Positions 3,019 to 50,708 of a DNA stretch of 52,188 nt are shown here, one piece after another (the stretch's first letter is position 1; the number at the start of each line of letters is the position of its first letter). The DNA is from a virus. Taxonomy: Duplodnaviria; Caudoviricetes. Location of the stretch: the IMG/VR virus record IMGVR_UViG_3300027801_002518, positions 1-52,188 of that record. One strand, given 5' to 3'. The translations under genes were made by a program, and so were the position numbers. The notes beneath the pieces were generated by a model, which ran no database searches, was not told the DNA's origin, and worked only from the letters and a program-made list of their open reading frames with translations.

Positions 3019-3807
3019 ATGGCGTTTAAAAAAAAACCAAATTATTCCAATAATCTTTTTTCAAAAAGAAGAAAAAGTACTTCTGCTTCATGGATAGCAT
3101 GGAATAAGGAAAGAATATCCAAGCTTAGCGAATCCAAGACTAAGAAAAAATTAGATCCAGGTTATAGAATAAATCGTTCTACTATTGTACGACCAAAGGA
3201 GCAACTCTTAACTAAATCAGAGTACAAAAAAAGAATTCCATTAGCATATATACAAAATCCATATCCAGTAGAAATAGGAACAGACCCAAGTTCAGCATAT
3301 ACACGAGCTGGGGGTAAAATAAAACTAACAGGAAAATACGAAGAAAATGTTGTATTATTTGAAGATATTGATGTAAGTGGTATTATAGGTCATAATGACG
3401 CTACCTTTAACTTCTTAATTGAATTTGGAGAAGGTGATCTTCACACATCTAAAGAATTTAAAACAGAATTGGAAAAACAACATGGATCTGTAAATCCATA
3501 CAAAAATAAAAAAACAGTATCTGTTGTTAAATTACCACTTTGGGATTTAGTAGCTTATCATAAAAAACCAAAGTTTTCAATATCAGAAGACTACGCAGAA
3601 GTTAATGTAGATGACACCATAAATACTAAAATAGACATAATAAATCACATAGAGTGGTTGAGTAAAACGGAAACAGAATCAGATCCACCATTAAGAAAAG
3701 CGAAAGATATGGGAATCACTTCATATTATACTTCACCAATCACAATGGTTGATGATCCAACCTTTTTAGGATTTGATCACGAACTTCCAAAGCCAGAATT
3801 AGAATAA
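3019..3807 (+). CDS. hypothetical protein with basic N-terminus
   Basis: 262-aa ORF, no recognised motif. Confidence 0.75.
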   Translation: MAFKKKPNYSNNLFSKRRKSTSASWIAWNKERISKLSESKTKKKLDPGYRINRSTIVRPKEQLLTKSEYKKRIPLAYIQNPYPVEIGTDPSSAYTRAGGKIKLTGKYEENVVLFEDIDVSGIIGHNDATFNFLIEFGEGDLHTSKEFKTELEKQHGSVNPYKNKKTVSVVKLPLWDLVAYHKKPKFSISEDYAEVNVDDTINTKIDIINHIEWLSKTETESDPPLRKAKDMGITSYYTSPITMVDDPTFLGFDHELPKPELE

Positions 3808-3814
3808 TTATAAT

Positions 3815-4168
3815 ATGAGTTTAAAAATTATTTGTGGAGAACTATACAGACAGGGATTCTTATCTGAAGAAGTGTGGGCAGCTGACCAAGAATTTGGCAA
3901 GCTTCTATACAAATCACATCCTCGTGTAATGTTAGGATACACATATTGGGCAAGGAATGTGGTTAAGTACATGAAGAACAACCCATCTCATACAAAATAC
4001 TTATACAGATTCTTTAAACCATGGACAGAACATATGTCTTATGTTATGGGCATAACCACGAAAAGAAATTTGGTAGGAAACATAACACAAAAAATAGGAT
4101 ATGGTTATTCTATTATTGTTTATAATTATTATCAACTAAAATGGGGAACGTTTAAATTTACAATATGA
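3815..4168 (+). CDS. hypothetical protein; stand-alone KIIC-x-ELY...GY..WA module (CFI-box-CTERM-like)
   Basis: MSLKIICGELYRQG...ADQEFG...GYTYWARNVV resembles a module usually found at the C-terminus of large phage proteins (recalled, not searched). Confidence 0.55.
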   Translation: MSLKIICGELYRQGFLSEEVWAADQEFGKLLYKSHPRVMLGYTYWARNVVKYMKNNPSHTKYLYRFFKPWTEHMSYVMGITTKRNLVGNITQKIGYGYSIIVYNYYQLKWGTFKFTI

Positions 4169-4524
4169 TAGGAGATGTACACAGAACAGTTTCATGGAAA
4201 CGATATTTACTTGAAACCAAATCACCACGAATAAATAAATTCTTAGAGTCAAGGGGTAATGAGGTATTTTACCAAGTATCCCAGGCAATAAATCAAGCTT
4301 CAATTAGAGGAGAACACTCGGTTGTCCTTTTAATACATCCCAATATAAAGAATATCATAGAAATAAAAAAGAAGGACTTCATAACAGTTCTAACTCGGGC
4401 CAGTAGTTGGTTTGAAAAAAAAGAAAAATATGAAATATGTTCAATCATAAAATCATATCGAGAAAATGTATTAAATAAAAATCCAAAGATAAAGACTAAT
4501 AAACGAATAGAAACTTTGATTTAA
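4165..4524 (+). CDS. hypothetical protein with C-terminal UvrB/UvrC-like helical motif
   Basis: FEKKEKYEICSIIK; ends ...ETLI. Confidence 0.6.
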   Translation: MIGDVHRTVSWKRYLLETKSPRINKFLESRGNEVFYQVSQAINQASIRGEHSVVLLIHPNIKNIIEIKKKDFITVLTRASSWFEKKEKYEICSIIKSYRENVLNKNPKIKTNKRIETLI

Positions 4525-4569: not shown

Positions 4570-6927
4570 ATGAAAGGCACATTATTCTCAGCTGATTTTG
4601 TAAAAGATTCAGATGCAAACTTAAGACTTTTAGAATTAAATACCGATACGGGATTTATCACTAATACACTATCTACACGATTTGATTTTACAGCTTTTAT
4701 TGCCGTATTATCATCCAATTCTATTACTGAACTTGTAATTATATATAAGTCAATTCATGTAGAGTTCGTATCTTTACTTGAAACTACAATTGCCAATGAT
4801 GCAACCTTTATTACAACTGTAACAAAGCAAGAAGAATCCTCAAGTACAATATACCCAACTGCCCCGACAGATGCAGCTGAAAAGTTTATTTTAAGATTGG
4901 CATACGATGAAAATGCTTTATTTGATTCCACGTATTGTAAACAAAGAGCAAACGTTCAGAAGTTATTTTATGATAACTCTGCAACAGGTTCTATACCAGA
5001 ATTTTGGTATAGTGGTAGTGATTATCAAATTAACACACTTACAAGTGGTGTAAATGGACATGATATATTACCTGATTTCGTTGCAAAAACTAAAGAGGAA
5101 CAACACACTTCCCTAGACTTTATTAAAGTTGGTAACGCAGATTCATCATCTGCAGATAGAATATCTGATTTAATTGTAAACTTTAATGAGTTATCAAGTG
5201 GAGACAAAACAATTGAAAAATATCATTATCACCCATCTGATATTACTGATAATGGAAAAGTTTCAGGATTTAGAAGTGTTGGAATTGTATATGGAACTGA
5301 TATTGAGTTCGTATCTATTGGGGGATGGAGAATAGAAGCTTTCATTAGTTTACCAACAAGTGTTGATTTAGATTATTTAGATGCATCTAATTTAATAAGT
5401 TTATATGATAAAAAACATTATTTTCAATTAACATCAAATTGGCTTAGAACAACCGCTAAAGATGCAGTTTATGAAGGTTCTGTTATAATTAAAGCAGATG
5501 ACAGTGAAGTATCAGCCAAAGATATAATAGAAGATGATTTACTTAAATCTATGTACATAGAAGGATTGCCTGATACGGATGATGCAGAAGTATATAGAGC
5601 ATGGTTTGCAAGTGGTTCAACACTTCCAAGTGGTTCTTATGTTACTTCATCTATTGTAGAAAATTCATCAAACGTAATCGGAGATGATTATGGGGTAATT
5701 GGAGAAATAAAATTAGGTAATGACGAAAGAATATACACAACAATAACAAAACATTTCCTAACATATAGTACAGGTTCAAATGAATATAGATTCTTACAAC
5801 AATATCAATTAGATAAAGATGACCACTTCTTAGTAAATTCTGATGATAATAAAATACAAATAGTTGATAATAACGTTGCTATATTAGAATCTACTGAAAC
5901 TGGTTCTTTTTATAGAATTGATATTGAAGATACGGATTCTTTCTTCGTAAGTTCATCACAGAGTGCATTTATTGTTCACAATGCTCCTTGTTTTTTAGCA
6001 GGAACTAAAATTCATACTGAAACTGGAATAAAAAATATTGAAGATGTAAAAGTAGGTGAACTGGTAATGACATTTAATCATGATAATGATGCCTCAGAAT
6101 ATAAAGAAGTATTGGAAGTGATGTTTAAGGAAAATGAATGTGTTATAACTTATGTTTTTGAAGATGAAACTGAACTTACTGGTACTAAAGACCATCCAAT
6201 ATATATTGTAGGAAAGGGATACTCATCCTTTGAACCACAACAAACTCTTGATGATAGTGGATTAAATGTAGAACAAATAGAAGTTGGTGATGTTGCAAAA
6301 CTTTTTGTTGAAGGAGAAGAATATCCACACCTTCTTATTACTGAAATAAAAGAAGCTGGATTTGAAGATGTTTATAATCTAAAAACTATACAAGATAATC
6401 ATAACTTTTATGCTAATAATGTATTAGTACACAACAGAGCTTGTTGTTTTGCAGCAGGTACACAAATATCATTATCTAATAACGATACTAAAAATATAGA
6501 AGATATTATAATAGGTGATGACGTAGTAGGTTGGGATTCGGAAAAAGGCGAAAGAACAATAGGAAGTGTAATTGCACTAAACCACAAAGACACAGTTGGT
6601 TCTCATGCAGCTGCTTGTGAATCACTAGGAGATGCACCATCACTATATACAGTTAATGATACTGAAATAGAATTTACACCGGAACACCCATTCTTAACAA
6701 AAGAAGGTTGGAAATCATTAGTACCTGATAATGCACAAGAACCATATTTATCAGAACAAGAACCAAAAACATTAGTAGTTGGTGATGAAATTAACGTAGA
6801 TGATAATTGGGTAGAGATAAAATCAATTGAAGTTGTACGTTCTAATGCAGATGAAAGAGTATATAACTTTACAGTAGATGGAATACATTCTTATATTGCA
6901 AACGGAATCATAGTACATAATAAATAA
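4570..6927 (+). CDS. circularly permuted ATP-grasp-like domain fused to three tandem Hint (bacterial intein-like) domains
   Basis: N-terminal SADFVKDSDANLRLLELNTDTG resembles the GspS-type RFDF..G..KLLEYNADT motif. Hint1 A299-N471 (AVYEGS...FIVHN), Hint2 C474-N622 (CFLAGT...TKDH...VLVHN), Hint3 C626-N784 (CFAAGT...TPEH...IIVHN). Confidence 0.85.
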   Translation: MKGTLFSADFVKDSDANLRLLELNTDTGFITNTLSTRFDFTAFIAVLSSNSITELVIIYKSIHVEFVSLLETTIANDATFITTVTKQEESSSTIYPTAPTDAAEKFILRLAYDENALFDSTYCKQRANVQKLFYDNSATGSIPEFWYSGSDYQINTLTSGVNGHDILPDFVAKTKEEQHTSLDFIKVGNADSSSADRISDLIVNFNELSSGDKTIEKYHYHPSDITDNGKVSGFRSVGIVYGTDIEFVSIGGWRIEAFISLPTSVDLDYLDASNLISLYDKKHYFQLTSNWLRTTAKDAVYEGSVIIKADDSEVSAKDIIEDDLLKSMYIEGLPDTDDAEVYRAWFASGSTLPSGSYVTSSIVENSSNVIGDDYGVIGEIKLGNDERIYTTITKHFLTYSTGSNEYRFLQQYQLDKDDHFLVNSDDNKIQIVDNNVAILESTETGSFYRIDIEDTDSFFVSSSQSAFIVHNAPCFLAGTKIHTETGIKNIEDVKVGELVMTFNHDNDASEYKEVLEVMFKENECVITYVFEDETELTGTKDHPIYIVGKGYSSFEPQQTLDDSGLNVEQIEVGDVAKLFVEGEEYPHLLITEIKEAGFEDVYNLKTIQDNHNFYANNVLVHNRACCFAAGTQISLSNNDTKNIEDIIIGDDVVGWDSEKGERTIGSVIALNHKDTVGSHAAACESLGDAPSLYTVNDTEIEFTPEHPFLTKEGWKSLVPDNAQEPYLSEQEPKTLVVGDEINVDDNWVEIKSIEVVRSNADERVYNFTVDGIHSYIANGIIVHNK

Positions 6928-7092: not shown

Positions 7093-7740
7093 GTGATATA
7101 TGCAACTATGTGTGTTGGTACTAAGTGGTTAACTAAGTATCAAGACACAATAAATGCATTTTCATCAAAAAACCATTTGGAGATATTAACTGATAATCCA
7201 ACTGGTTTAATAGGTTCTCACATTACCTTATACGAAAGAAATGTATTTAGTTATTATGAAAAGGTAAACTTTATGTTTAATCTTTCAAAAAAATATAACG
7301 AAAGAATTACTTACATAGATATCGATTGGTTAAATGCCTACAATACAAATATAACATATGATGATACAACATTATATAGTTATGCTACATATGATTTATC
7401 AGATGAGAATATCCTAACCAAATGGTTTACCGAAAACGAATATCATTTTAGAGATAATTTATTATCACATATATCAGTTAATTCTAATATAGATTTTTAC
7501 ATACCAGAAGCATTGATTTCAATACCCCAATTAAATAATATAGATAATATACAACTTGATTTAAAAACAATACAACCAATAATTGAAAGTTGGTATGATT
7601 TAAAAAATAAAAACCCTAGATTTAGACGATATATTAAAAATGGAATAGGTTATGCAGAGGGATGGGGAGTATCAGCAGTGTGTAAAAAATATAAAATACC
7701 AATCGATAAAGTAGATTGGAAAAGACACGCTTTGCTATGA
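7093..7740 (+). CDS. putative nucleotide-sugar transferase-like protein (DxD)
   Basis: IYATMCVG start, ILTDNP, FSYYEK, TYIDID motif typical of GT-A-like phage proteins. Confidence 0.55.
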   Translation: MIYATMCVGTKWLTKYQDTINAFSSKNHLEILTDNPTGLIGSHITLYERNVFSYYEKVNFMFNLSKKYNERITYIDIDWLNAYNTNITYDDTTLYSYATYDLSDENILTKWFTENEYHFRDNLLSHISVNSNIDFYIPEALISIPQLNNIDNIQLDLKTIQPIIESWYDLKNKNPRFRRYIKNGIGYAEGWGVSAVCKKYKIPIDKVDWKRHALL

Positions 7741-8234
7741 AACTATCTACACAGAAATTTAATGAACTTATTAACGAGTTAGAAAAAACACCATTAATTA
7801 ATGAGACAGAATGGAAAAAGAAAATAAGTATAACAGGTGATTGGGCACCTGTTAGTTTAGACAAGAGTTGGATTACTACAACTAAAGTTATACATTATTC
7901 ACTTAGAAATCCAAATCTTAATAAAATACTTGAAGAATTATCAGGTAGAAGTATAAAGGATTGTTTAACCCTACATACAGTAGAAGCAGTACCACCACAA
8001 GCAACAGTTGCACATACAGATAAATATTCTGAAATAACATTAAATATTTTACTTGAAGATGATTGTGAGGGTGGGTATTTATATGTAGAAGGTGAGAAGA
8101 TAGAGGAATATAAAGAAAAGGGAGATTATGTAGTATATGAGGGAAGAAAACAAAAACACTCAGTAACTGCAATTGAAAAAGGTAAAAGAAAGGCTTTAAT
8201 TGTTTGGTTTGGTCCTGTTAAAAGTGTAATATAA
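7737..8234 (+). CDS. 2OG-Fe(II) oxygenase (P4Hc-like)
   Basis: HTD, LLEDDCEGGYL, H-S-V-T, R-K-A-L-I-V-W; ATG 7737 chosen for the ATGA overlap. Confidence 0.88.
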   Translation: MKLSTQKFNELINELEKTPLINETEWKKKISITGDWAPVSLDKSWITTTKVIHYSLRNPNLNKILEELSGRSIKDCLTLHTVEAVPPQATVAHTDKYSEITLNILLEDDCEGGYLYVEGEKIEEYKEKGDYVVYEGRKQKHSVTAIEKGKRKALIVWFGPVKSVI

Positions 8235-8237
8235 ATA

Positions 8238-8762
8238 ATGATATTTGAAGACTCCATACCATTATTTAATTCAACTGAATTAGATATTATTAAATCTAGT
8301 TGGAAAGATGAAAGAGCAAATGTTATCTTCCAAAATAACTATAAAGATGTATCTTACCATGAGACTGTTGTAAATGATTTACCACAAGAATATGTAGATA
8401 GATTTTTAGATTGGATTGAAAGTAAGATTGGAAAGAAGATTTATAATAGAAAAAAATATGATTTACTCTTAAAACGATTTAAAGAAGGAGAATATTTGGA
8501 TTATCACACAGATAGTGATTATAGTAATACGAGTTGGAACGTTGAATATGCTGCTGGGTTTCATGTAAATGATGATTATGAGGGTGGTGAATTTGTTGTA
8601 TATGAAAATGGAAAAGAAAGAGTTATAGGAAATCAAATAGGAGTTCCATACATATTCTCAGCTGATACCCATCATAAAATAAATAAAGTTAAATCAAAGA
8701 TTAGATATAGTATAATCTTATTTGTATATAATAACTCCATTGATACACCCACATTAATATGA
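8238..8762 (+). CDS. 2OG-Fe(II) oxygenase (P4Hc-like)
   Basis: YHTD, NDDYEGGEF, HHKINKV, RYS. Confidence 0.9.
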   Translation: MIFEDSIPLFNSTELDIIKSSWKDERANVIFQNNYKDVSYHETVVNDLPQEYVDRFLDWIESKIGKKIYNRKKYDLLLKRFKEGEYLDYHTDSDYSNTSWNVEYAAGFHVNDDYEGGEFVVYENGKERVIGNQIGVPYIFSADTHHKINKVKSKIRYSIILFVYNNSIDTPTLI

Positions 8763-9936: not shown

Positions 9937-10605
9937 ATGGCAAAAATCAAGAACATTACAAAGAACCCACCAAAGGGTAAGATTAAATTTGAAATTACAT
10001 TATCAGAAGAACAAAAAGAAGCTAAATCAAATATTTTAAATCATCCATATAATTTCATTATGGGTAAAGCAGGTAGTGGTAAAACATTATTAGCAGTTCA
10101 AGTTGCATTAGATATGTTCTTTACAAGACAAGTAAATAAAATTGTTATAACAAGACCAACAGTATCTAATGAAGATAATGGATATTTACCAGGTTCTTTA
10201 AATGAAAAGATGGAGCCATGGTTAGTTCCAATTCGTTCTAATATGAGAAAGGTTTATAACAAACCAGCTATATTGGAAAAGATGGAGAACGATGAGAACA
10301 TTGAATTAGTATCACTATCACACTTTAGAGGAAGAACATTTGAAAACGCTTGTGTCATTATAGATGAGTTTCAAAATCTAACCAAACAACAACTTAGTAT
10401 GGTATTGGGTAGATTAGGTAAAGGTTCTACAATGATACTTACAGGTGACCCACAACAGATTGATTTGAAATTTGCAAATGATTCTGCAATACATGAAGTA
10501 CCTAAACTAAAACCATCACAATATGTGTATCAAATATCACTTTTAGATAATCACAGACATGAAGCTCTGAATGAGTTGCTTAAACTATTACATGAATATT
10601 CATAA
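9937..10605 (+). CDS. phoH: PhoH-family ATPase
   Basis: GKAGSGKT, TRP, GYLPG, RGRTF, IIDEFQN, TGDPQQID. Confidence 0.95.
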   Translation: MAKIKNITKNPPKGKIKFEITLSEEQKEAKSNILNHPYNFIMGKAGSGKTLLAVQVALDMFFTRQVNKIVITRPTVSNEDNGYLPGSLNEKMEPWLVPIRSNMRKVYNKPAILEKMENDENIELVSLSHFRGRTFENACVIIDEFQNLTKQQLSMVLGRLGKGSTMILTGDPQQIDLKFANDSAIHEVPKLKPSQYVYQISLLDNHRHEALNELLKLLHEYS

Positions 10606-11061: not shown

Positions 11062-11544
11062 TTGAAAAAACAAATAGTTTACATTGATATGGATGGAGTA
11101 ATAGTTGATTTTGGAAAAGCAATCCAAGATTGGTTCGATACTCATCCACATTTGGAAGAAAGATATAAAACATTCCCTGACCACATCCAAGGATTATTCA
11201 GAACCGCTCCACCAATACAGGGAGCAATTGAAGCAGTAACGAAATTACACGAAAGTGGTAAGTATGAATTATTCATTGCATCAGCAGCTCCTTGGGGAAA
11301 TCCTCAATCAAATACCGATAAAAGATTTTGGATTGAAGATTACTTCGGAAACTTATTCCACAAGAAAATGTTTATAACCCACAGAAAAGATTTATTGATG
11401 GGAGACTATCTTATTGATGATAGATTAAAGAATGGAGCTGGTGAGTTTACTGGTAAACTATTAAGGTTCGGCCTAGATTGGGAAAATGATAACAAACCAA
11501 ATGAATATCCAACATGGAAAAGTATATTAGATTATTTATTGTAG
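11062..11544 (+). CDS. 5'(3')-deoxyribonucleotidase (HAD, NT5C family)
   Basis: YIDMDGVIVDF, K..W, GDYLIDDR; TTG start. Confidence 0.92.
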   Translation: MKKQIVYIDMDGVIVDFGKAIQDWFDTHPHLEERYKTFPDHIQGLFRTAPPIQGAIEAVTKLHESGKYELFIASAAPWGNPQSNTDKRFWIEDYFGNLFHKKMFITHRKDLLMGDYLIDDRLKNGAGEFTGKLLRFGLDWENDNKPNEYPTWKSILDYLL

Positions 11545-17002: not shown

Positions 17003-17917
17003 ATGAATAGATTAGATAAAGAATATCAAAAAATACTTCAAGATATATTAATACTAGGAGTAGAAAAAGAAGATAGAACCGGTACTGGTACGATATCTGT
17101 TTTTGGAAGACAAATTACACACAACATGTCGGATGGGTTTCCATTACTTACTACTAAGAAAGTTGCAATCAAAACAATGATGACTGAACTTAAATGGTTT
17201 CTGAAAGGAGATACCAATATTAAATATCTTGTTGATAATGGATGTAATATATGGAACGGTGATGTTTATAAATCATATAGAACCAAAATGAAACATCATT
17301 ACAAAAATGGTGGAGATGTTGCAACTCAACACGAGTTCATAGAATTAATCAGAGAAGATGATGAATTCGCTGAAAAGTGGGGAGAATTAGGTCCTATATA
17401 TGGCAAACAATGGAGAAGTTGGCCACCAGTTGCTGGTGATATAAACAAAGGAGGAACTGACCAAATCAAAAACCTCATCAAACAATTAAAAACAAATCCA
17501 GATAGTAGAAGATTAATAGTCTCGGCATGGAATGTTGGAGAGTTGGGAAATATGATACTTCCACCTTGTCATTATGGATTTCAATGTTACGTAAACGATG
17601 GTACGTTATCTCTAATGTGGAATCAACGTTCAGTAGATACATTCTTAGGTTTACCATTTAACATAGCATCATATGGTATGTTACTAACCCTATTGGCCAA
17701 AGAGGTTGGCATGATACCTGGTGAACTTATTGGTAATTTAGGTGATACCCACTTATATTCCAACCACGTTGAACAGGCAAGAGAACAGATGGAAAGAACC
17801 TCATTTGAGTTACCAAAAATAAAAGTATCTAATTTAGATATCTTAAATGGAGAATGGGATTATGAAATTAAAGATTATGAATATCATCCAACAATAAAAG
17901 CACCACTAAGTAATTAA
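17003..17917 (+). CDS. thyA: thymidylate synthase
   Basis: DRTGTGT, FPLLTTKK, GPIYGKQWR, SRR, LPPCH, QRSVD..LGLPFN, DTHLY. Confidence 0.97.
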   Translation: MNRLDKEYQKILQDILILGVEKEDRTGTGTISVFGRQITHNMSDGFPLLTTKKVAIKTMMTELKWFLKGDTNIKYLVDNGCNIWNGDVYKSYRTKMKHHYKNGGDVATQHEFIELIREDDEFAEKWGELGPIYGKQWRSWPPVAGDINKGGTDQIKNLIKQLKTNPDSRRLIVSAWNVGELGNMILPPCHYGFQCYVNDGTLSLMWNQRSVDTFLGLPFNIASYGMLLTLLAKEVGMIPGELIGNLGDTHLYSNHVEQAREQMERTSFELPKIKVSNLDILNGEWDYEIKDYEYHPTIKAPLSN

Positions 17918-23076: not shown

Positions 23077-24786
23077 ATGGTAAGTGGTTATATTTTAGGA
23101 ATAAGTTGTGGATATCACGATTCTGCTGCTTCTTTAATTAAAGATGGTAAAGTATTGGGTGCGTGTGAAGAAGAAAGATTCACAGGAATAAAACATGATT
23201 CTTCGTTTCCAATAAACACTATTAATTGGTTAGTTGAGGAATTCAAAATTACACCCAATGATTTAGATGCAGTTTGTTTTTATGAAAATCCAAAATTAAA
23301 ATTAGATAGAATTGAAACTTCTACAAAAAAAGGAGGATGGAAAAACTTCTTTAGTAGATTGAAAATAATATCTAAAAATAAGAAAGTATATAAAGATACA
23401 ATATCTCAACTAGAAAGTTTACGAGGAAGTAAAACACAATTAATTTATTGTGATCATCACTTATCTCATTTAGCATATTCATATTACACCTCTCCATTTA
23501 AAGAATCTGCTTTACTATCAGTTGATGGTGTGGGGGAATGGGAAACTACTTCACTTGCAATTGCAGATACTGAAATTAAAAAAATAGGTTCTATTAAGTT
23601 TCCACATTCTTTGGGAATGTTATATTCTACAATGACTGCATTTCTTGGATTCAAACCAAACGAAGGTGAATACAAAGTAATGGGATTGTCTCCGTATGGG
23701 GATGCATCTAAACATATAAAAAAATTCAAAGAACTATATATCACTACTAAAGATGGTGGGTTTGAATTGAATATGGAATACTTTACATATGAGTGGTCAA
23801 CAAATAGTATGTTTAACAAAAAGTTATCAGAATTATTTGAACTACCAAATAGATTACCAGAGGAAACGTTAGAACAGATACATAAAGATATCGCAGCATC
23901 TCTTCAACAAATTTATGAATTCTTATTCTTTAGATTACTCACAACATTATATAATCAAACCAAATCTGAAAACTTATGTTTAAGTGGAGGTTGTGCATAT
24001 AATGGTACGGCAAATGGTAAAATATTAAAAAGAACTAAGTTTAAGAATTTATACATTCCACCAGCCCCATCAGATGCGGGTTCGGCTATAGGATGTGCAT
24101 TACACTATTTTTACAGTAAAAACAAAATTACAAATAGAGTGAATAACTCAAACCCATATTTAGGTCCAAGCTATACTAACGATGATATAGTATCTGCCTT
24201 AACTAAATACGAAAAAGATGTTTGGTATTCTAAAAAACTATATGAACAAATAACTGACATAGTTGCAAATGAAATTGTAGATGGAAATGTTATTGGGTGG
24301 TTTGAGGGCAGAATGGAATTTGGTGCACGTGCATTGGGTAATCGTTCTATATTAGCAAACCCAAGAGACCCTCAAATGAAATCTCGTTTGAATAGGGTTA
24401 TTAAAAAAAGAGAAGGATTCAGACCATTTGCACCAATTGTAAAAGAAGAATATGCATCCCGTTATTTTGAATATAGTGATACGATTCCATATATGAATCA
24501 AGTTGTTAAAGTAAAAGAATCTTACAAAGATGAATTACCTGCAATAACTCATGTTGATAATTCTGCAAGAATACAAACTCTAAATAAAGGACAACAAAAA
24601 CACATATATGAATTACTTAGTGTACTTGAAATACTAAATGAATATCCAATTGTTATTAATACATCGTTTAATTTAAAAGACCAAACAATGGTATTAACTC
24701 CTGAGGATGCTATTAAAACTTTTCTTAATTGTGAAATGGATACGTTGATACTTCATAATTACGTTATAAAAAAGAAAATAATTTAA
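23077..24786 (+). CDS. carbamoyltransferase (NodU/CmcH/TobZ family)
   Basis: HDSAA, EEERF..IKH, HHLSH, DGVGE, EYKVMGL, GGCAYN, DAGSAIG, EFGARALGNRS, FRPFAP, NTSFN. Confidence 0.95.
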   Translation: MVSGYILGISCGYHDSAASLIKDGKVLGACEEERFTGIKHDSSFPINTINWLVEEFKITPNDLDAVCFYENPKLKLDRIETSTKKGGWKNFFSRLKIISKNKKVYKDTISQLESLRGSKTQLIYCDHHLSHLAYSYYTSPFKESALLSVDGVGEWETTSLAIADTEIKKIGSIKFPHSLGMLYSTMTAFLGFKPNEGEYKVMGLSPYGDASKHIKKFKELYITTKDGGFELNMEYFTYEWSTNSMFNKKLSELFELPNRLPEETLEQIHKDIAASLQQIYEFLFFRLLTTLYNQTKSENLCLSGGCAYNGTANGKILKRTKFKNLYIPPAPSDAGSAIGCALHYFYSKNKITNRVNNSNPYLGPSYTNDDIVSALTKYEKDVWYSKKLYEQITDIVANEIVDGNVIGWFEGRMEFGARALGNRSILANPRDPQMKSRLNRVIKKREGFRPFAPIVKEEYASRYFEYSDTIPYMNQVVKVKESYKDELPAITHVDNSARIQTLNKGQQKHIYELLSVLEILNEYPIVINTSFNLKDQTMVLTPEDAIKTFLNCEMDTLILHNYVIKKKII

Positions 24787-35253: not shown

Positions 35254-38200
35254 ATGGCACGAAGAAAACCAAGAGGATTACCAACAGATTCAAACTTTAG
35301 TGATGAAGTATTTGAAAATAACGGCACGCCTATTCTTTCTGGAGGAGGATTTAGTGATAACGCTATAATTAACCAAGGAGAAGCACAAGTACCAGTTCTT
35401 AATCCAGGACCTATTATAATTCAAGATCCAGTGTTTAGGACTAAGTCTATTCCAATATTTAAAAAAGACATAATTAAAAATGACTTTCCAATACTAATAC
35501 CAAGACCAAAACCACCAACTCCATTATCACCGAGCAGACATATAACAGTTTCCATCTTCTCTAAGACAGGTGGAAGTATTCTTATAAATGGAGTAGATAC
35601 TCTTAAATCTCCCACAAACCTTTCTGGGAAATTTCGTTATACTGGAAAAGAATTATTAAAACCAAAATATTTCAAGGTAATAAAAAGTGGATATGCATGT
35701 AAGGAAGAATATAAATTATATTCTACTAAAAAACGACTTATAAAAACAATAAGACCATTAATTGATAATTCCGATGACTTTATTGTACGTGATGAACTAA
35801 TTCCAATTAGAAAAGATGACTTTCGCGTAGAAAACTTTAAATTTAATAATGGAAGGACGTTCGGAGGTATTGGTGATGTTTATTTAGGATTTACAAGACC
35901 AGTAACATCAATTGTTGCAAAAAAACCATCACCAATTGGTAGTATTGCATATGATTACTATGAATTTATATTGGAAAAGAATGGTAAAATAGTTCCTCTT
36001 TCAGAGCAAATACAACCTATTACAAATACAATAAATCCTCTCATGTTTGTTAAGTTGGATTTCAACATGACAAATATTATTATAAACGATGATATTGAAG
36101 ATGATATAGTTGATACTCCGATTACGGTAAATATAGAGAGTTTTGTATCTGCAGATAATATTATACAATATAAAACATCTTGGGGATCCAGTGGATTTCT
36201 TCTAGATGATGATGATATTGATTTAAAACATACAATTAGGGATGGACAAAAAGAAACACCATCTATTAAATTTACATCAATTGGTATTTCGGATTTTACA
36301 CATACAGTAACGTTTAAATATAACACACCACACGTGAGACGTGATGTAATCAATAAAACAAAAGAGTTTACTCTTGATTTAATTCCTGGTCAAACTAACA
36401 TAGTAGTTAATGCTATAAAAGTTGCAGTGGAGGATTCCCCATTTACACCATCTATAAAAGCAGATATTACTAACGTTAAAGTTAATCTTGCTATAAGAAA
36501 TGGAAGAGTAAATATACCATATAAAAGTATTAATGCAGATAAAGTAATTTATACTCTTGGTAAAAGAAAAAGAGAAATAGAGTTAAGTGGTAGTTTAACA
36601 TTAACCAAGTCTGATTTCCCCAACGGAGTAGGTAACTACATAATTTATTTACAAGCCATATCCAATGGTGGTGGTAGTAGTATAATAGAAAAAATATATG
36701 TAACAGTTGGAAGTAGAGAATTTATACCTGGTCCTGATATTACAAACATAAATTATCCACAAAATATTGTTGGTGCTGATTTTAAAGGATTTAATGTTCC
36801 CTTTGATATTAGTTGGCAATCTATTAATACAAATTATATTAAAGTTTACGCTGGAAAGAAAACCAACAGTACATCTTTAGGACAATTTCCTGCATCTGGA
36901 GTATCATCGTTTAATGTTGATGATGTTCTAAGGAAGTTAAATATTATAAAAATAAGACCTGCAGAAGTTAATGGTGTATATCAGTTTAATTTAATTTTAA
37001 TACCATATAACGAAGAAGGTGATTCGGTAACTGAAGGTAAACATGAACAAATAAGTATTACATTTGATAAAGGAAATTTAACAATCCGAAGAGGAACTGT
37101 TATTTCTGATATTAGAAGTGCATTTGCAAAAGAATTTGACCCAACAATTTTTCGAGAATCAATATCACCATTTTTAACTCATTATTTACATTTAGGTGAA
37201 GGTAATAATAAATTGGTTGCTACTTGGGGTATTGATACAGATACACTATCTACCTTTAAAGATGACTTAGACAATAATACTAGGAAAAAAACGAAAGAAG
37301 AGAAATCATTAGTATTAAAACTATACGAACCACTTCCTCCTAGTGTTAATTTAAATGATACTCTTTGGATATCAAAATTACAGGCAATACCTTTAATTGA
37401 CCAAATCACCATAGTTGATGATGTTTCACAAAACTGTACACCACTTACTCCAAACTTTGCTTTGGAAACTAATGATGTAATAGGTTATCAGATTTTAGAT
37501 GATTTGATATCAAGTGGATCTACCACATCTACGGATGTTGTTAATACATTTATATCTTCTTCTGAATTTTCATTGGATAATTTGAATTTACAATTTGTAA
37601 CTACGGATACAATTTTAATAGAAACAGCTGGTAGTGGAAATTATTATCAAGAACATCCAAATCAATCAATCGATTGGAGTAATTTTGTTAAATATTCATC
37701 TGCAGAAGAGAGAGTTGAAAACTTTGTTTATAAAGTTAAATTACTACAATCATATGAGGACCGATATGGTGGATTGGTATCTGGTAGTTCTATTGATTTC
37801 GGAAGTGGAACTTCAAGTTCAATCACAGGTTCTGCAACTTCATCGATTGCTATTAAGAATGAAGCCACAAGAACTCTTGGTAAAATAAATGATGTTAAGA
37901 AAGGATTTGATTCTTTTGAAAAATTCTTATTTACAAGTTCATCTGTAAGTGGATTGACATGGCCAGGAGCTGGACAAAATCAACTATCTGCTTCAACTGA
38001 TTCAAGTGTAACAACTTGGTATGATATTGTTATTTTAGATGCAACTACTTATGATGAAGGAAATAGTTCACGATTAGTTAATAATTTACCTGCTCATATA
38101 CAAAATGATCCAGATGGTTCTTCTTTTCCATTATTCTTTGATATGATTGGACAACACTTTGATGTGTTATGGGCTCATATTAAAGGTATCAATCAAACAA

Positions 38201-40578
38201 ATAAATTAGAACATAAGTTTGAAAAAGGAATTAATGATAAGTTAATTTATCATATGTTGGAATCACTTGGTTGGGATGCTGATATGGGTGCACAATCTCA
38301 ATTACTTTGGGAATATGCATTTGGCAAACATTCTGATGGAACAGTAGTTGCTGAAATGACCGGCAAGGAGAGACAAAATGAAATTTGGAGAAGATTATTA
38401 AATAACTTACCATATCTTCATAAACACAAAGGTACTAAGAGAGCAATATCAGCAGCATTAAGTTGTTATGGTATTCCACAATCATTACTTACTGTTATGG
38501 AGTTTGGAGGCCCACAAGATACACAATCAGCTGGTACAACTAAATTTACATTTGAAGATAGAACGGCATCTATTAACTTTGCAAGTTCATCAAACGCAAT
38601 AACCGTACCATGGAAATCTCATAACGGAAAATATCCAGATTCAGTTGAACTTAGATTACATACTGACCAAAGACAAGACCAACAGATAGTAAGTGGTTCT
38701 GGTTGGAATCTTGATATAGATTATCCTGAATCAGGAACACTTGGAAAACTTACATTAAATGTATTAAGTGGTTCTACATGGGTATCATCTTCAACTGGAA
38801 AAGTTGCATTCTTTAATGATGAATACACACAAATTGTTGTAAATAGAATTACAGGAAGTGTAAATGATACATTTGATGTTTATCTAAAAGAAGGTTTCCA
38901 AGAAAGAATACGAAATCATACCTCAACTACATTTACAGTACCAAGTGGAAGTAGTGGTTGGAATAATGGACATGAATTAAAAATAGGTGGTTCTACTTTA
39001 ACTGGTTCTCTTGACGAATTCAGATTATGGTCTGCACCACTAAGTGAATCTGTTATTTCAAATCACACATTATTACCAGATGCAATAAATGGTAATCACA
39101 TCACATCATCTACATCTGATTTAATTTTCAGATTAGATTTTGAATATCCAAAAGATAGAGTTGCTGATACTTCTATTAAAAACGTATCAATTGATACTAC
39201 ATATGAAACATTTGCAACCGCTTCCAACTTTGCAGCTAGTTCTACATATCCATATCATTATACTACATATGATAGAGATGTAACCGCGGAAGTTCCTTCA
39301 AGTGGAATTAGTTTTGGTAACAAAGTAAGATTTGAATCTCAAACAAAAATATTAGATTTATCATATAGACAACGAGCAACTAAAAAATCATTTGATCAAT
39401 CTCCCCTTGATTCTGATAGATTAGGATTATTCTTCTCTCCAATAAAAGAGATTAATATGGATATCATGAAATCACTTGGTGGATTTAATATTGATAATTA
39501 TATTGGTGACCCTTCTGATGATTATTCTTCTGAATACAAAGAACTAAGGGATTTACGAACTTATTATTTCAATAGATATAATTTAAATTTATCTGAATAT
39601 ATTCAATTAGTTAGATATATTGATAAATCTCTTTTTGATGTATTAGAATCCCTTGTACCGGCAAGAGCTAAAGTATCGAGTGGATTATTAATCGAACCAC
39701 ATATTCTTGAACGAAGTAAAGTAGAAAGAAGACCTACAAGTGCATCAATGCACAACTATTCCTCAACAGGAGTTGATATACAAGAAGATATTTCTGTAAA
39801 ATCAACAAATGAGGGTGTAGTTGGTATTGTAAGTGCTTCACAATCTACTATATTAAGTGGTGATAAACATCACTTCGATGGATTCATATCTTCATCAGAA
39901 CCAACCATGGCAGGTTCAAATAATTCTTATGATTCTACGATAAGTGCCAATGAAGACATAACCCAACAAGGATTTATCACAGTAAATAGTGGTTCTGATA
40001 TGGGTGGTATTTCTATTAAAATAGATGCAGAATTCCAAACTCCATTACAAGGCGAGTATGAATCATCTATGTTTACTCAAGTAGGAATGGATATGAATTC
40101 ATTAACGGTAGCTGGATTTGGATTATATGCAGAAAACGGACATGCTATTGTAACCAAATTAGATAAAGATAATAATTTTACAAAAGTAAGAAAAAGAGTA
40201 GATGTTATAACAGAAAGTTATACAGTAGATATTCCACAGAACATCGACCCACTGGATTCTTCAAAGGGTAGAGAGTTTGTAACACAAACACTTACCAGAA
40301 AGAAACTAAATTTAAGAAACTTTAATCAATCTGGTTCACTTGCAGCGAATAACGTTGTTAGTATTGTACCATTAAATGGGTATGTACCATATCATTATAG
40401 AAATGTGGGTGATTTAACAAGTGGAATGGAGAATTCGTTCTTTAATGGTTCTAAACAAACATCAAGTACAACTTTAGATGGGGGTGTAGCTGTTCAAACG
40501 TTCACAACTAATCCAAATACATTGAGAGTTTCTGATAGTGGAAGAGGAAGTGGTGAACCGATATTAGAGGTTGATTGA
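35254..40578 (+). CDS. large baseplate wedge protein (gp7/P2 gpI-like) with LamG-like domain
   Basis: LESLGWD, IWRRLLNNLPYLHKHKGTKRAI..YGIP, GSLDEFRLWSAPLS (LamG/concanavalin end), LVPARA. Confidence 0.75.
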   Translation: MARRKPRGLPTDSNFSDEVFENNGTPILSGGGFSDNAIINQGEAQVPVLNPGPIIIQDPVFRTKSIPIFKKDIIKNDFPILIPRPKPPTPLSPSRHITVSIFSKTGGSILINGVDTLKSPTNLSGKFRYTGKELLKPKYFKVIKSGYACKEEYKLYSTKKRLIKTIRPLIDNSDDFIVRDELIPIRKDDFRVENFKFNNGRTFGGIGDVYLGFTRPVTSIVAKKPSPIGSIAYDYYEFILEKNGKIVPLSEQIQPITNTINPLMFVKLDFNMTNIIINDDIEDDIVDTPITVNIESFVSADNIIQYKTSWGSSGFLLDDDDIDLKHTIRDGQKETPSIKFTSIGISDFTHTVTFKYNTPHVRRDVINKTKEFTLDLIPGQTNIVVNAIKVAVEDSPFTPSIKADITNVKVNLAIRNGRVNIPYKSINADKVIYTLGKRKREIELSGSLTLTKSDFPNGVGNYIIYLQAISNGGGSSIIEKIYVTVGSREFIPGPDITNINYPQNIVGADFKGFNVPFDISWQSINTNYIKVYAGKKTNSTSLGQFPASGVSSFNVDDVLRKLNIIKIRPAEVNGVYQFNLILIPYNEEGDSVTEGKHEQISITFDKGNLTIRRGTVISDIRSAFAKEFDPTIFRESISPFLTHYLHLGEGNNKLVATWGIDTDTLSTFKDDLDNNTRKKTKEEKSLVLKLYEPLPPSVNLNDTLWISKLQAIPLIDQITIVDDVSQNCTPLTPNFALETNDVIGYQILDDLISSGSTTSTDVVNTFISSSEFSLDNLNLQFVTTDTILIETAGSGNYYQEHPNQSIDWSNFVKYSSAEERVENFVYKVKLLQSYEDRYGGLVSGSSIDFGSGTSSSITGSATSSIAIKNEATRTLGKINDVKKGFDSFEKFLFTSSSVSGLTWPGAGQNQLSASTDSSVTTWYDIVILDATTYDEGNSSRLVNNLPAHIQNDPDGSSFPLFFDMIGQHFDVLWAHIKGINQTNKLEHKFEKGINDKLIYHMLESLGWDADMGAQSQLLWEYAFGKHSDGTVVAEMTGKERQNEIWRRLLNNLPYLHKHKGTKRAISAALSCYGIPQSLLTVMEFGGPQDTQSAGTTKFTFEDRTASINFASSSNAITVPWKSHNGKYPDSVELRLHTDQRQDQQIVSGSGWNLDIDYPESGTLGKLTLNVLSGSTWVSSSTGKVAFFNDEYTQIVVNRITGSVNDTFDVYLKEGFQERIRNHTSTTFTVPSGSSGWNNGHELKIGGSTLTGSLDEFRLWSAPLSESVISNHTLLPDAINGNHITSSTSDLIFRLDFEYPKDRVADTSIKNVSIDTTYETFATASNFAASSTYPYHYTTYDRDVTAEVPSSGISFGNKVRFESQTKILDLSYRQRATKKSFDQSPLDSDRLGLFFSPIKEINMDIMKSLGGFNIDNYIGDPSDDYSSEYKELRDLRTYYFNRYNLNLSEYIQLVRYIDKSLFDVLESLVPARAKVSSGLLIEPHILERSKVERRPTSASMHNYSSTGVDIQEDISVKSTNEGVVGIVSASQSTILSGDKHHFDGFISSSEPTMAGSNNSYDSTISANEDITQQGFITVNSGSDMGGISIKIDAEFQTPLQGEYESSMFTQVGMDMNSLTVAGFGLYAENGHAIVTKLDKDNNFTKVRKRVDVITESYTVDIPQNIDPLDSSKGREFVTQTLTRKKLNLRNFNQSGSLAANNVVSIVPLNGYVPYHYRNVGDLTSGMENSFFNGSKQTSSTTLDGGVAVQTFTTNPNTLRVSDSGRGSGEPILEVD

Positions 40579-50500: not shown

Positions 50501-50708
50501 CCTTCCAAGACCTAATTTCCTCGTTATAGATGAAGGATTTGGTACATTGGATAGTGAGAACTTACAATCCCTTTTTATGTTGTTCACCTACCTTAAAACT
50601 CAATTTGATTTCGTAATGATTATCTCACACATAGATTCTATGAGAGATGTGGTAGATGACTTGATTACTATTAAAAAAGAAGAAGGATTCTCTAACGTAA
50701 GATATTAA
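47550..50708 (+). CDS. fused Mre11/SbcD nuclease - Rad50/SbcC ATPase (gp47-gp46 fusion)
   Basis: ADLH, GD, GNHD, LGDIH, YAGS; Walker A APNAAGKSS, Q-loop, coiled coil with CDVC hook, CSGMERF, IDEGFGTLD, ISH. Confidence 0.93.
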   Translation: MIINKVYHLADLHIRNLQRHKEYRLIFKKFLKQVVKDDIQDSVIYLAGDIAHAKTEMSPELLQEISWFFTECAKLRETIIITGNHDCNLNNNHRLDVLTPIIENLKNPRLHYLRDTGVYNIHNLTFVVYSILDKKENWPSGNDIEGENTICLFHGPVNKAQTDIGYIVSSNSFQVEMFDGFDIAMLGDIHKRQTFGKGYEHIAYAGSMVQQNHGEMLENHGYLLWDVPTRTFTEHHIHNDYGFLTVDVVDGQIPQWVYDEVGTKLPKNPRLRLRFTNTEASTMKLRITELKKIFKVAEVTVTRTDTMGQLKQNSKLNKNIVGNVKDETFQNQLIREYLERQYLLDDDELNQITDINKEMNGLIDDSKIAENILWTPKDFQFSNMFSYGEDNLIRFDKAQGIVGIFAPNAAGKSSLFDALSFCVFDKTSRTNISKNIMNNRKQNFYCKFNFEIDGVDYFIERTAKYVRKATSVKVDVNFWKEDGGIPQSLNGEQRKDTNKEIEKYLGKFEDFVLTTLSLQGNNALFIDKSQSERKEVLSQFIGVDIFDKLYQQASDENRDNASLIRKFKQDDFTQKLADIVVELKEKKSEYKLLDIQQDSAKVEEEKLNKEIIKLNEKIVKLNADSGVSIEELEKRRKLLSKKQDELKESKNSIQERITHREETQITLDEILDKFDEEDLEEGITKLKEKRSSQQTLESDIEKIKIKLDSLYERKEHLDSHKYDEECDVCMENSQTIREQKAKVDSKIKDGESHLHDFNQQHLEITLSIDSLVPYEKEWTNFQEAKSKEDKIDREISGLINKLSTTETEEYRNSTQLVQQEQLIEEYYKNETQINKNREIRNEIVDVRHGWEKIKQQIRNSNSEILSLNGKISALQNQKETIEDRVSEVKDLESQSKLFDYYLNALGRDGVSYELIEKALPMIEGEVNNILGQIVDFGMQLEIDGRNINAYLVYGDQRWSLEMCSGMERFISGLAIRVALINVCNLPRPNFLVIDEGFGTLDSENLQSLFMLFTYLKTQFDFVMIISHIDSMRDVVDDLITIKKEEGFSNVRY

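Follow-up and report, generated by a model that had tools for sequence, protein, structure and literature searches.

Within the window, the whole 52,188-nucleotide stretch of phage DNA analyzed here, positions 4570-6927 of the forward strand translate to a 785-residue protein, P0001, which appears to combine an ATP-grasp-like domain with three consecutive Hint domains and a lone C-terminal lysine (Table 1). The dipeptide HN occurs four times in this protein (residues 470, 611, 621 and 783), and three of these occurrences are Hint C-termini. Indeed, the junctions HN/AP/CF and HN/RAC/CF and the terminal HN-K lie exactly where the initial annotation had placed them, and its claim of three tandem Hints is borne out by Pfam, hhalign and fold comparison taken together. 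None of the three +1 residues (A472, R623 and K785) is Cys, Ser or Thr, and canonical splicing is not expected, as had been argued there. This junction pattern is not by chance, because the same architecture recurs in 117 of the 120 listed homologues.

Table 1. Features of the P0001 reading frame, numbered from the first nucleotide of the window.
Feature	Residues	Position	Strand	Assignment and basis
Whole ORF P0001	1-785	4570..6927	+	Plausible ATP-grasp-like domain, Cys1-less Hint, two complete Hints, terminal Lys
N-terminal domain	1-~290	4570..5439	+	Plausible permuted ATP-grasp-like fold (AF2 model, Foldseek, VIA)
Hint1	~292-471	5443..5982	+	Predicted Hint fold without position-1 nucleophile (VIA, hhalign)
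Junction 1, end of Hint1	H470-N471	5977..5982	+	
Linker 1	Ala472-Pro473	5983..5988	+	Translation
Junction 1, start of Hint2	C474	5989..5991	+	
Hint2	474-622	5989..6435	+	Cys474, T539-x-x-H542, H621-N622; BIL-A / mini-intein type (Pfam, VIA)
Junction 2, end of Hint2	H621-N622	6430..6435	+	
Linker 2	Arg623-Ala624-Cys625	6436..6444	+	Translation
Junction 2, start of Hint3	C626	6445..6447	+	
Hint3	626-784	6445..6921	+	Cys626, T703-x-x-H706, H783-N784 (Pfam, PDB sequence match)
Protein end	H783-N784-K785	6916..6924	+	Followed by the stop codon
Terminal Lys and TAA stop	Lys785	6922..6927	+	One-residue 'C-extein' (translation)

Hint-type Pfam models cover residues 473-~622 and 626-784, with AXH as the top match (E 1.6e-19) and with further matches to Hint and PT-HINT. 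The two complete domains align with each other in hhalign at a probability of 99.8%, share 26% identity, and are anciently diverged. For fold comparison of the Hints we used an AlphaFold2 model of residues 270-785, in which pLDDT drops below 50 only in the two linkers (residues 471-474 and 623-626) and in which the pTM of 0.44 describes beads on a string. The top VIA match of Hint2 in this model was BIL2 of the Tetrahymena BUBL1 locus (6tmm, Z 20.1), over an aligned range (model 65-357) that also takes in part of Hint1; the NpuDnaB intein (Z 19.5) and a Clostridium thermocellum BIL (2lwy, Z 17.7, 32% identity) were matched as well. Similarly, the best PDB sequence matches were the C. thermocellum BIL 2lwy for Hint2 (E 8.1e-6) and the NpuDnaB mini-intein 4o1r for Hint3 (E 6.8e-7). 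The catalytic positions C474, T539, H542, H621 and N622 of Hint2 and C626, T703, H706, H783 and N784 of Hint3, together with K785, are invariant in all 52 aligned homologues. As far as sequence can tell, Hint2 and Hint3 are clearly not vestigial.

Both domains have the core of a class 1 intein (HINT fold, Cys/Ser1, T-x-x-H and His-Asn); Hint1 lacks the position-1 nucleophile. Their fold and all of their splicing-block residues are common to the class 1 mini-inteins NpuDnaB (4o1r), gp41-1 (6riz) and NrdJ-1 (8ubs), at Z 19.0-19.5. Unlike those elements, however, they lack a +1 nucleophile, the residue after Hint2 being R or K in 116 of 117 listed homologues; they join no pair of host exteins, since the 'C-exteins' measure 2, 3 and 1 residues and the last is a single Lys; and they occupy no conserved insertion site. 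A canonical-intein reading of Hint2 and Hint3 was rejected on the non-nucleophilic +1 residues. Cys1 and His-Asn without a +1 nucleophile is instead the combination by which A-type BILs are defined (Amitai 2003 and Dassa 2004, as cited in the available part of PMC4031507).

The first Hint is more divergent. It gave no Pfam match, pairwise blastp of the putative domain against Hint2 and Hint3 was not significant, and hhalign paired it with Hint3 over 139 columns at a probability of only 50% (E 1.7e-4). As modeled, Hint1 is a real Hint fold, because residues 292-473 (model 23-204) match inteins and BILs at Z 16.3 (6rpq), 15.8 (6zgq) and 15.0 (6owu). Position 1 is Ala299 in P0001, and among the 52 relatives it is Gly in 35 and Ala in 10. 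The residues E453, D456, H470 and N471 are invariant (52 of 52 aligned homologues), and of the intein machinery Hint1 appears to keep just the end for C-terminal cleavage, namely block F/G-like residues and His-Asn. A class 3 intein reading was also considered and rejected, the aligned block-F position being Arg rather than Cys in hhalign.

The N-terminal domain was modeled by AlphaFold2 at a pLDDT of 86.9. The top Foldseek match of residues 1-293 was YjfC (7uk6; E 2.7e-5, probability 1.0, TM only ~0.35), and VIA matched the domain to the group formed by GspS, YgiC, YjfC and eukaryotic glutathione synthetase at Z 7.2-6.0, where a Z of ~7 is middling and inside the range that the tool gives for common arrangements. 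These four are ATP-grasp ligases with a permuted fold order, and they are the best fold matches of the phage domain. Its invariant residues among homologues, E22-x-N24, K60, R109 and K173, include an E-x-N near the N-terminus that presumably fits such an order. The phage domain differs from the GspS and eukaryotic glutathione synthetase family in having no sequence-family match to it: residues 1-470 gave no Pfam match at E<=1, an alignment of the N-domain alone found 0 matches at E<=10 among PDB profiles, a PF03738 search of the record gave 0 matches, PHROG matches of the protein fell at the Hint level only, and ESM Atlas offered only sub-0.9 leads (GshA PF08886 and ATP-grasp families). With modest support, residues 1-~290 are plausibly permuted ATP-grasp ligase-like, and the 'ligase' proposed earlier as the fusion partner stands to this extent on Foldseek and VIA.

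P0001 belongs to a large family. There were 710 full-length homologues at E<=1e-3 among 8000 scored candidates (90%-identity clusters), 120 of which were listed, and 246 matches among 50%-identity representatives. The homologues come from metagenomes and uncultured viruses, and their public-source names were uninformative. A tblastn search of 50,697 cultured-phage records returned no full-length relative and only five records, all matching at the Hint level with 14-25% coverage. Relatives carry anywhere from 0 to 3 downstream Hints: P0119, for example, is without Hint2, and relatives with no downstream Hint still stop a few residues past the His-Asn of Hint1. The protein contains no homing endonuclease. 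Three IMG/VR contigs share synteny, with a dCMP deaminase gene upstream and PhoH downstream, and none of the neighboring genes has an obvious functional link. The family was not described in the portions available of papers retrieved on phage BIL/Hint domains, on ATP-grasp with Hint or intein-like domains, and on tandem viral Hints. One paper, in the text available, mentions ATP-grasp, Hint domains and bacteriophages in unrelated passages.

To follow the linkers we used the 117 homologues with both junctions, from the 120 listed of 710. In these, linker 1 reads AP in 79, A in 10, SP in 7 and something else in 3, and is missing from 18, so that 28 of the 117 have zero or one residue; where it is two residues long it is X-Pro in 86 of 88. 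Linker 2 takes 72 different sequences of 2-17 residues, and RAC is found in five of the 117, namely the cluster of the query itself and its four closest relatives (65-90% identity). Its first residue is R in 85, K in 31 and F in 1, and its last is T in 65, C in 49 and G in 3. A tree from which the linkers were left out implies at least 15 changes of state in linker 1 and, in linker 2, at least 74 changes of sequence and at least 42 of length; the first residue of linker 2 changed only 8 times. The protein ends in VHNK, with a single Lys, in 117 of the 120 listed homologues. A divergent set of 116 representatives of at least 430 aa had linkers of 0-14 residues, plus one of 61, between Hint1 and the next Hint (n=60), and of 1-10 residues, plus 30 and 36, between later Hints (n=42). 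The +1 residue is K or R in 33 of those 42 Hint-to-Hint linkers and in 69 of 70 tails; after the last HN-type Hint, K comes first in 64 of the 70 and R in 5.

These data bear directly on a proposal in the initial annotation, that Ala-Pro and Arg-Ala-Cys are themselves encoded, activated products. That proposal largely fails the check on linker conservation that came with it, linker 2 existing in 72 forms of 2-17 residues, and since linker 1 is absent in 18 of the 117 listed homologues and a single Ala in 10, no dipeptide or cyclo(Ala-Pro) could be a conserved output. The fallback offered alongside it, a Hint duplication with vestigial linkers, comes closer to the evidence, although the Hints themselves are not vestigial. 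We find the pattern best read as probable selection on the residues adjoining the scissile bonds, not on the peptides as such: position +1 is basic following Hint2 and Hint3, and position -1 holds Thr/Cys or Pro.

On balance we lean towards an explanation in which the linkers serve as spacers within an autoprocessing Hint array that is under selection, varies in copy number (0-3) and is carried by an enzyme-like phage protein. The conserved core would be the permuted ATP-grasp-like domain with the Cys1-less Hint1. Cys474 and Cys626 would form thioesters by N-S acyl shift, Asn471, Asn622 and Asn784 would cyclize, and the C-terminal ~315 residues would cut themselves away from the ATP-grasp-Hint1 core, a maturation with a single turnover, with AP, RAC and Lys as by-products at most. 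The fate of the thioesters could be plain hydrolysis, BIL-style religation or transfer to some other nucleophile. A nonsense mutation within a linker would remove the downstream Hints and leave the domains before them unharmed, yet these Hints are kept, their catalytic residues intact, across hundreds of lineages, which argues that they are probably selected for their chemistry. Cleavage of the array is predicted here from sequence and model alone. A plain maturation leaves unexplained why two different Hints (26% identity) are retained, why a lone Lys comes after the last Asn, and why 86 of the 88 two-residue forms of linker 1 are X-Pro, proline at -1 being unfavorable for N-terminal intein cleavage. 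The AP linker, fairly well conserved (79 of the 117 listed homologues), may have some role.

The nearest known systems are A-type BILs, which, in the part of PMC4031507 available, act chiefly by cleavage and carry His-Asn with no nucleophile at +1. Like them, the phage Hints combine the HINT fold, Cys1, a block-B T-x-x-H and a C-terminal His-Asn, have no Cys/Ser/Thr at +1 and are not inserted in a conserved site of a host protein. They differ in sitting as two tandem Hints at the extreme C-terminus, 0-17 residues apart and with a single Lys after them, and in being preceded by a Cys1-less Hint and a fused ATP-grasp-like domain. Upstream cleavage that frees an amine while a downstream thioester is held, the logic invoked for AP and RAC in the first place, does have precedent in the available accounts of A-type BILs (PMC4031507) and of BIL2 in Tetrahymena BUBL (BIL-ubiquitin-like) loci (PMC8616854); it is the claim of AP and RAC as products that is not supported.

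A rival reading gives the thioesters a different fate. In a conjugation or ligation device of the Hedgehog or BUBL kind, which we regard as unlikely, those at Cys474 and Cys626 would not be hydrolyzed but passed to a nucleophile: a lysine (Lys785 or a Lys of a target, which would form an isopeptide), a polyamine, a thiol or a lipid. In a variant, the freed alpha-amines would join the flanks again in the manner of A-type BIL splicing, to give ...HN-AP-RAC-K; splicing of this type by aminolysis is on record in the accessible text of PMC4031507. The Z of 20.1 to BUBL1 BIL2 points the same way, and BIL2, as presented in the available part of PMC8616854, forms an isopeptide through the epsilon-amine of Lys and hands a ubiquitin-like domain to substrates without ATP. 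So do the terminal Lys of 117 of the 120 listed homologues and the K-first tails (64 of 70), the invariant His-Asn, which simple N-terminal release would not need, and the resemblance of the N-domain to amide-forming ligases with polyamine or thiol substrates. Against it, Arg, a poor nucleophile, holds +1 after Hint2 in 85 of the 117 listed homologues, and therefore basic charge, not nucleophilicity, seems to be selected there; moreover, there is no target or acceptor to point to, the locus adjoins no conserved partner gene of known role, and two sequential transfers are hard to rationalize.

More broadly, the array might be a general machine that frees an N-terminus and activates a C-terminus, in BUBL style, in marine phages, though we consider this distinctly improbable. 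A segment of any kind that starts after a His-Asn and stops before the following Cys1 would come free, with its amine exposed and its other end held as a thioester, and would then be cyclized head to tail or, without ATP, ligated onto a target. As described in the available sections of PMC8616854, BUBL loci likewise hold several BILs in one polypeptide, and the segment between two of them is freed N-terminally by the upstream domain and activated C-terminally by the downstream one, with Lys as acceptor; that segment, however, is a folded ubiquitin-like domain and the point of the system, whereas the phage segments are 2-3 residues and not conserved. Indeed, the segments here are AP and RAC, and a Pfam search of the phage protein gave no ubiquitin-like match. 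A few distant relatives (P0218, P0213 and P0222) do carry Cys-rich segments of 30-61 residues between Hints, and PCPECC-type repeats occur in their inter-Hint or post-Hint1 Cys-rich segments. Such modules and Cys-rich tails would make the family a fused enzyme-plus-precursor system for peptide maturation, in P0001 with the cargo shrunk to 2-3 residues or with the terminal Lys as an acceptor that caps the enzyme.

We think it quite doubtful that the Hints are non-catalytic, whether as folded binding or scaffold modules, comparable to the Hint-related AXH domain, or as decaying remnants of selfish inteins, with no processing at all. AXH is the top Pfam match (E 1.6e-19), the nucleophile is already lost from Hint1, and 0-3 downstream copies would suit dispensable or mobile modules. 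However, Hint2 and Hint3 have kept all of their canonical catalytic residues without variation (52 of 52), as Hint1 has its His-Asn (52 of 52), a homing endonuclease is absent, and a selfish C-terminal element could be shed by any nonsense mutation, yet this one is present in 117 of the 120 listed homologues.

Least credible, and in our view very improbable, is that the inter-Hint peptides are the product, with Asn cleavage by Hint1 freeing Ala472 and Hint2 holding an Ala-Pro thioester (RAC likewise on Hint3) that would yield cyclo(Ala-Pro) or act as an acyl donor: the chemistry is plausible, AP outnumbers every other form of linker 1 (79 of the 117 listed homologues), an X-Pro sequence (86 of its 88 two-residue forms) favors diketopiperazine formation, and the Cys-rich segments indicate that the inter-Hint site can hold real cargo, but linker 1 is missing or one residue long in 18 and 10 of the 117, RAC appears in 5, linker 2 changes on nearly every branch, free Lys is no meaningful product, and one small molecule per 785-residue (88-kDa) single-turnover protein would be an implausible production route. 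BUBL loci offer this reading a precedent in the available text of PMC8616854.

Farther afield, the Hint model matched Hedgehog (1at0) at Z 17.7. Hedgehog Hints are not known to carry the terminal Asn, and they have a sterol-recognition region. The available part of PMC3417536 has Hedgehog Hog and PT-HINT as C-terminal Hints for autoproteolytic release or transfer of a neighboring module, to which the phage Hints may be likened; PT-HINT, however, sits before a toxin domain, whereas nothing but Lys follows the phage array. Hint and BIL domains have been known as units that cleave or splice themselves singly, and here a large family carries them as arrays: a nucleophile-less Hint followed by 0-3 complete ones, with almost no extein between and one Lys after the last Asn. 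In 18 of the 117 listed homologues two successive Hints share a single Asn-Cys bond as their scissile site, C-terminal for the first and N-terminal for the second. Should processing follow the prediction, the array would be a natural test bed for coordination between neighboring Hint active sites, and tools for protein ligation and cleavage could draw on it for compact BIL-type domains with a tolerance for non-nucleophilic flanks. As regards the mini-peptides, the outcome is mostly deflationary, AP and RAC not being conserved products. Among the divergent relatives, P0239 and P0261 end in a Cys-rich tail, and P0261 also has a weak match to Peptidase_S74 (E 0.0065) that misses the cut-off.

Translation of the Hint-array ORF reproduced exactly, in sequence and position, the junctions described in the initial annotation, which had placed three tandem Hint domains in this protein with only Ala-Pro and Arg-Ala-Cys between them. 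The tandem arrangement was likewise borne out, for Hint2 and Hint3 by sequence and for Hint1 by structural alignment of a model. Pfam Hint-type models (AXH, Intein_splicing, Hint, Hint_2, PT-HINT, Vint and Hom_end_hint) matched residues 473 to ~622 and 626-784, and by sequence these two domains are clear paralogues (blastp 26% identity, E 3e-12; hhalign probability 99.8%), whose divergence is ancient and which have both been retained. Pfam gave no match to residues 1-470, blastp detected none for the Hint1 region, and hhalign aligned 139 columns of Hint1 with Hint3, nearly the whole domain, at a marginal probability of 50% (E 1.7e-4). Residues 270-785 were modelled with AlphaFold2 from an alignment of 52 sequences (mean pLDDT 84.7), and the model was aligned structurally against all representative structures. 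Hint2 reached Z 20.1 with BIL2 of the Tetrahymena BUBL1 locus (6tmm), an alignment of model positions 65-357 that also covers part of Hint1, followed by the NpuDnaB intein (Z 19.5), a Clostridium thermocellum bacterial intein-like (BIL) domain (2lwy, Z 17.7, 32% identity) and Hedgehog (1at0, Z 17.7). Because model positions 23-204 (protein 292-473) align to known structures at Z 16.3 (6rpq), 15.8 (6zgq) and 15.0 (6owu), Hint1 is a genuine Hint fold. By sequence, the closest solved structures are the C. thermocellum BIL for Hint2 (E 8.1e-6) and the NpuDnaB mini-intein for Hint3 (E 6.8e-7). The only residues below pLDDT 50 are 471-474 and 623-626, the two linkers, and the low pTM (0.44) means that the packing of the domains against one another is not confident.

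Coordinates of the Hint array, its junctions and other features of the window
Feature	Position (nt)	Strand	Description
262-aa ORF	3019-3807	+	precedes the 119-aa ORF; no Pfam or PHROG match
119-aa ORF	4165-4524	+	directly upstream of the Hint-array gene; no Pfam or PHROG match
Hint-array ORF	4570-6927	+	785 residues
Junction 1	5977-5994	+	H470-N471 / A472-P473 / C474-F
Junction 2	6430-6450	+	H621-N622 / R623-A624-C625 / C626-F
Protein end	6916-6927	+	H783-N784-K785-stop
Auxiliary/nucleotide-metabolism set	171-1220, 1729-1803, 2239-2694, 7716-8762, 9937-10605, 11089-11544, 17003-17917, 23077-24786		
1774-aa ORF	35254-40578	+	structural block
1052-aa ORF	47550-50708	+	calcineurin-like phosphoesterase with AAA_23/SbcC motifs; fused SbcD-SbcC-like protein

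Conservation across the 52 relatives is strict at the predicted active sites. C474, T539, H542, H621 and N622 of Hint2, and C626, T703, H706, H783 and N784 of Hint3 together with the terminal K785, are invariant in 52/52. In Hint1, E453, D456, H470 and N471 are invariant and the column aligned with Cys1 is dominated by Gly and Ala (Ala299 here; Gly 35, Ala 10, Phe 3, Thr 2, Val 1, Ser 1), so this domain has kept the C-terminal, Asn-cyclising end of the machinery and lost the N-terminal nucleophile.

The linkers behave differently from one another. Of 8000 candidates scored in a word-seeded search, 710 proteins reached E<=1e-3, and we compared the best 120, headed by the window protein's own cluster; most are full-length at 750-820 aa. 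A subgroup of 916-968 aa (for example P0006-P0008, P0028 and P0030-P0034) carries a ~165-residue insertion between the N-terminal domain and Hint1, for which Pfam found no match in P0006. Both junctions are present in 117/120, the exceptions being a fragment (P0101), a protein with one recognised junction (P0084) and P0119, which lacks Hint2 and has PF16472 in its precomputed Pfam list. Among these 117, linker 1 is AP in 79, absent in 18, A in 10, SP in 7 and GF, GR or NGHGL once each, and a two-residue linker is X-Pro in 86/88. Linker 2 takes 72 different sequences of 2-17 residues, often Pro/Gly- or Tyr/Gly-rich; it begins with R (85), K (31) or F (1) and ends with T (65), C (49) or G (3). 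The proteins themselves end in VHNK (117 of the best 120; HNKI 1, truncated 2). On a FastTree phylogeny of the N-terminal domain and Hint1, with the linkers excluded and 115/120 rows kept (each >=700 aa and with two junctions), linker 2 needs at least 74 changes in sequence and 42 in length, against 8 in its first residue and 16 in its last. The initial annotation had proposed that the linkers are genetically encoded activated mini-peptides. Arg-Ala-Cys fails this comparison: linker 2 varies at random, in length as well as sequence, among near relatives, and RAC is found in 5/117, namely the query's own cluster and its four closest relatives (65-90% identity). Ala-Pro gives a mixed picture: most homologues have it, yet it can be dispensed with, being absent or reduced to a single residue in 28/117, with at least 15 changes of state on the tree. 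Since the one is random and the other dispensable, no defined peptide is a conserved output of the array, and the mini-peptide proposal is not supported. Constraint falls instead on the neighbours of the scissile bonds (a basic +1 residue, Thr or Cys in the -1 position before Hint3, Pro in that before Hint2, a single terminal Lys) and on the Hint catalytic residues. Where linker 1 is absent (18/117 close homologues and 9/60 divergent representatives among the matches listed), HN is joined directly to Cys-Phe, so that a single peptide bond serves as scissile bond for the two domains alike, and Hint1 gains a canonical +1 Cys.

Starting from the observed residues, folds and conservation, and taking each chemical step by analogy with A-type BILs, we somewhat favour the array being a module that processes itself in a single turnover. 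N-S acyl shifts at Cys474 and Cys626 and Asn cyclisation at N471, N622 and N784 would detach the Hints from an ATP-grasp-Hint1 core, which every family member shares. In A-type BILs, according to PMC4031507, His-Asn is present, the +1 nucleophile is absent and cleavage predominates. The main rival, which we consider unlikely, is that the thioesters at Cys474 and Cys626 are used productively, for capture or ligation. BUBL BIL2, which heads the structural matches by Z, is described in PMC8616854 as forming a Lys epsilon-isopeptide and as passing on a ubiquitin-like domain with no need of ATP, and productive use would explain the near-universal terminal Lys and invariant His-Asn better than plain release; however, the +1 residue of Hint2 is mostly Arg, and we can name no acceptor. 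That the Hints are non-catalytic or decaying seems more doubtful still: a nonsense mutation in a linker could remove them and leave the upstream domains untouched, yet the active sites persist intact, which argues that Hint chemistry is used. Least probable is that the inter-Hint peptides are the product; making one molecule per 88-kDa protein would, besides, be an odd route to a metabolite.

The N-terminal domain is likely a putative ATP-grasp-like ligase, judging from a model of residues 1-300 (pLDDT 86.9, pTM 0.82). Its best Foldseek matches all fall in one ATP-grasp ligase group, with TM-scores of only ~0.35: E. coli YjfC (7uk6, E 2.7e-5), YgiC, plant and human (homo)glutathione synthetases and glutathionylspermidine synthetase. 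An independent structural aligner ranked the same enzymes first at Z 7.2-6.0, a middling range; ESM Atlas gave weak leads, and sequence searches (Pfam, PDB profiles, PF03738) gave no family match. The invariant residues include E22-x-N24 near the N-terminus, D9, D13, K60, R109, D113, K173, E216 and R235, an order that we take to be consistent with the permuted ATP-grasp arrangement of the YjfC/glutathione-synthetase group. In the papers that we searched there was no description of an ATP-grasp-like/Hint fusion or of comparable tandem Hint arrays. We place the array with known BIL-type Hint autoprocessing.

A profile-free scan of residues 1-300 against 1.84 billion cluster representatives gave 246 matches at E<=1e-3, of which 150 were parsed with HMMs built from the Hint-array family itself. 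These 150 comprise Hint1 with one further Hint (42), two (39) or three (2), Hint1 alone (26), a Hint without Hint1 (3) and 38, mostly fragments, with none recognised. Linkers and tails were tallied in the 116 representatives of >=430 aa, the 34 shorter ones being dropped. Among the matches listed, Hint1-to-Hint linkers (n=60) span 0-14 residues plus one of 61, in 29 sequences (AP 17, none 9). Hint-to-Hint linkers (n=42) are 1-10 residues long, with outliers of 30 and 36, and begin with R (21), K (12), F (5), T (2), Y (1) or A (1). Behind the last Hint of the His-Asn type (n=70), the tail is K alone in 42, and starts with K in 64, R in 5 and V in 1. In some distant members of the family, Cys-rich segments of 30-61 residues with repeated PCPECC-like motifs separate His-Asn from the next Cys1 in P0218, P0213 and P0222, and Cys-rich tails of ~50-100 residues immediately follow the His-Asn of Hint1 in P0239, P0261, P0235, P0255 and others; Pfam matched no family to either, and both may be genuine cargo for the Hints. 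Past the Cys-rich region, P0261 weakly matches Peptidase_S74, a chaperone of phage tail spikes that cleaves itself (E 0.0065, short of the cut-off), and the C-terminal end of P0230 looks similar by eye; if real, different self-cleaving C-terminal modules would be interchangeable in this family. In P0132-P0135, P0147, P0148, P0163 and P0195 another type of Hint takes the last position, and the proteins end in conserved '...SGLGDN...' or '...KHL'-like tails. Because this Hint lacks a terminal His-Asn and, in P0134, matches Vint and Hint models, its sequence suggests that an N-cleavage-only Hint substitutes for the His-Asn type in these lineages.

All long genes of the window lie on the + strand of an IMG/VR virus record of 52,188 bases (G+C ~30%, completeness estimate 28%), whose nucleotide-metabolism genes, 2OG-Fe(II) oxygenase-like ORFs, baseplate wedge protein and SbcCD-like protein fit a large T4-like marine myovirus. 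Among 50,697 cultured-phage records there was no full-length relative. The Hint-array gene belongs to the metabolic block, not the structural one, in a region that also holds an IMPDH/GMP-reductase-family protein, tRNA-Thr(TGT), dCMP deaminase, two 2OG-Fe(II) oxygenase-like ORFs, PhoH, NT5C nucleotidase, thymidylate synthase and a carbamoyltransferase. Related genes in three other IMG/VR contigs (L002-L004; 53, 214 and 276 kb) share this neighbourhood, with dCMP deaminase upstream and PhoH downstream, and divergent homologues (23-38% identity) of the 119-aa and 262-aa ORFs also lie upstream of the Hint gene there.
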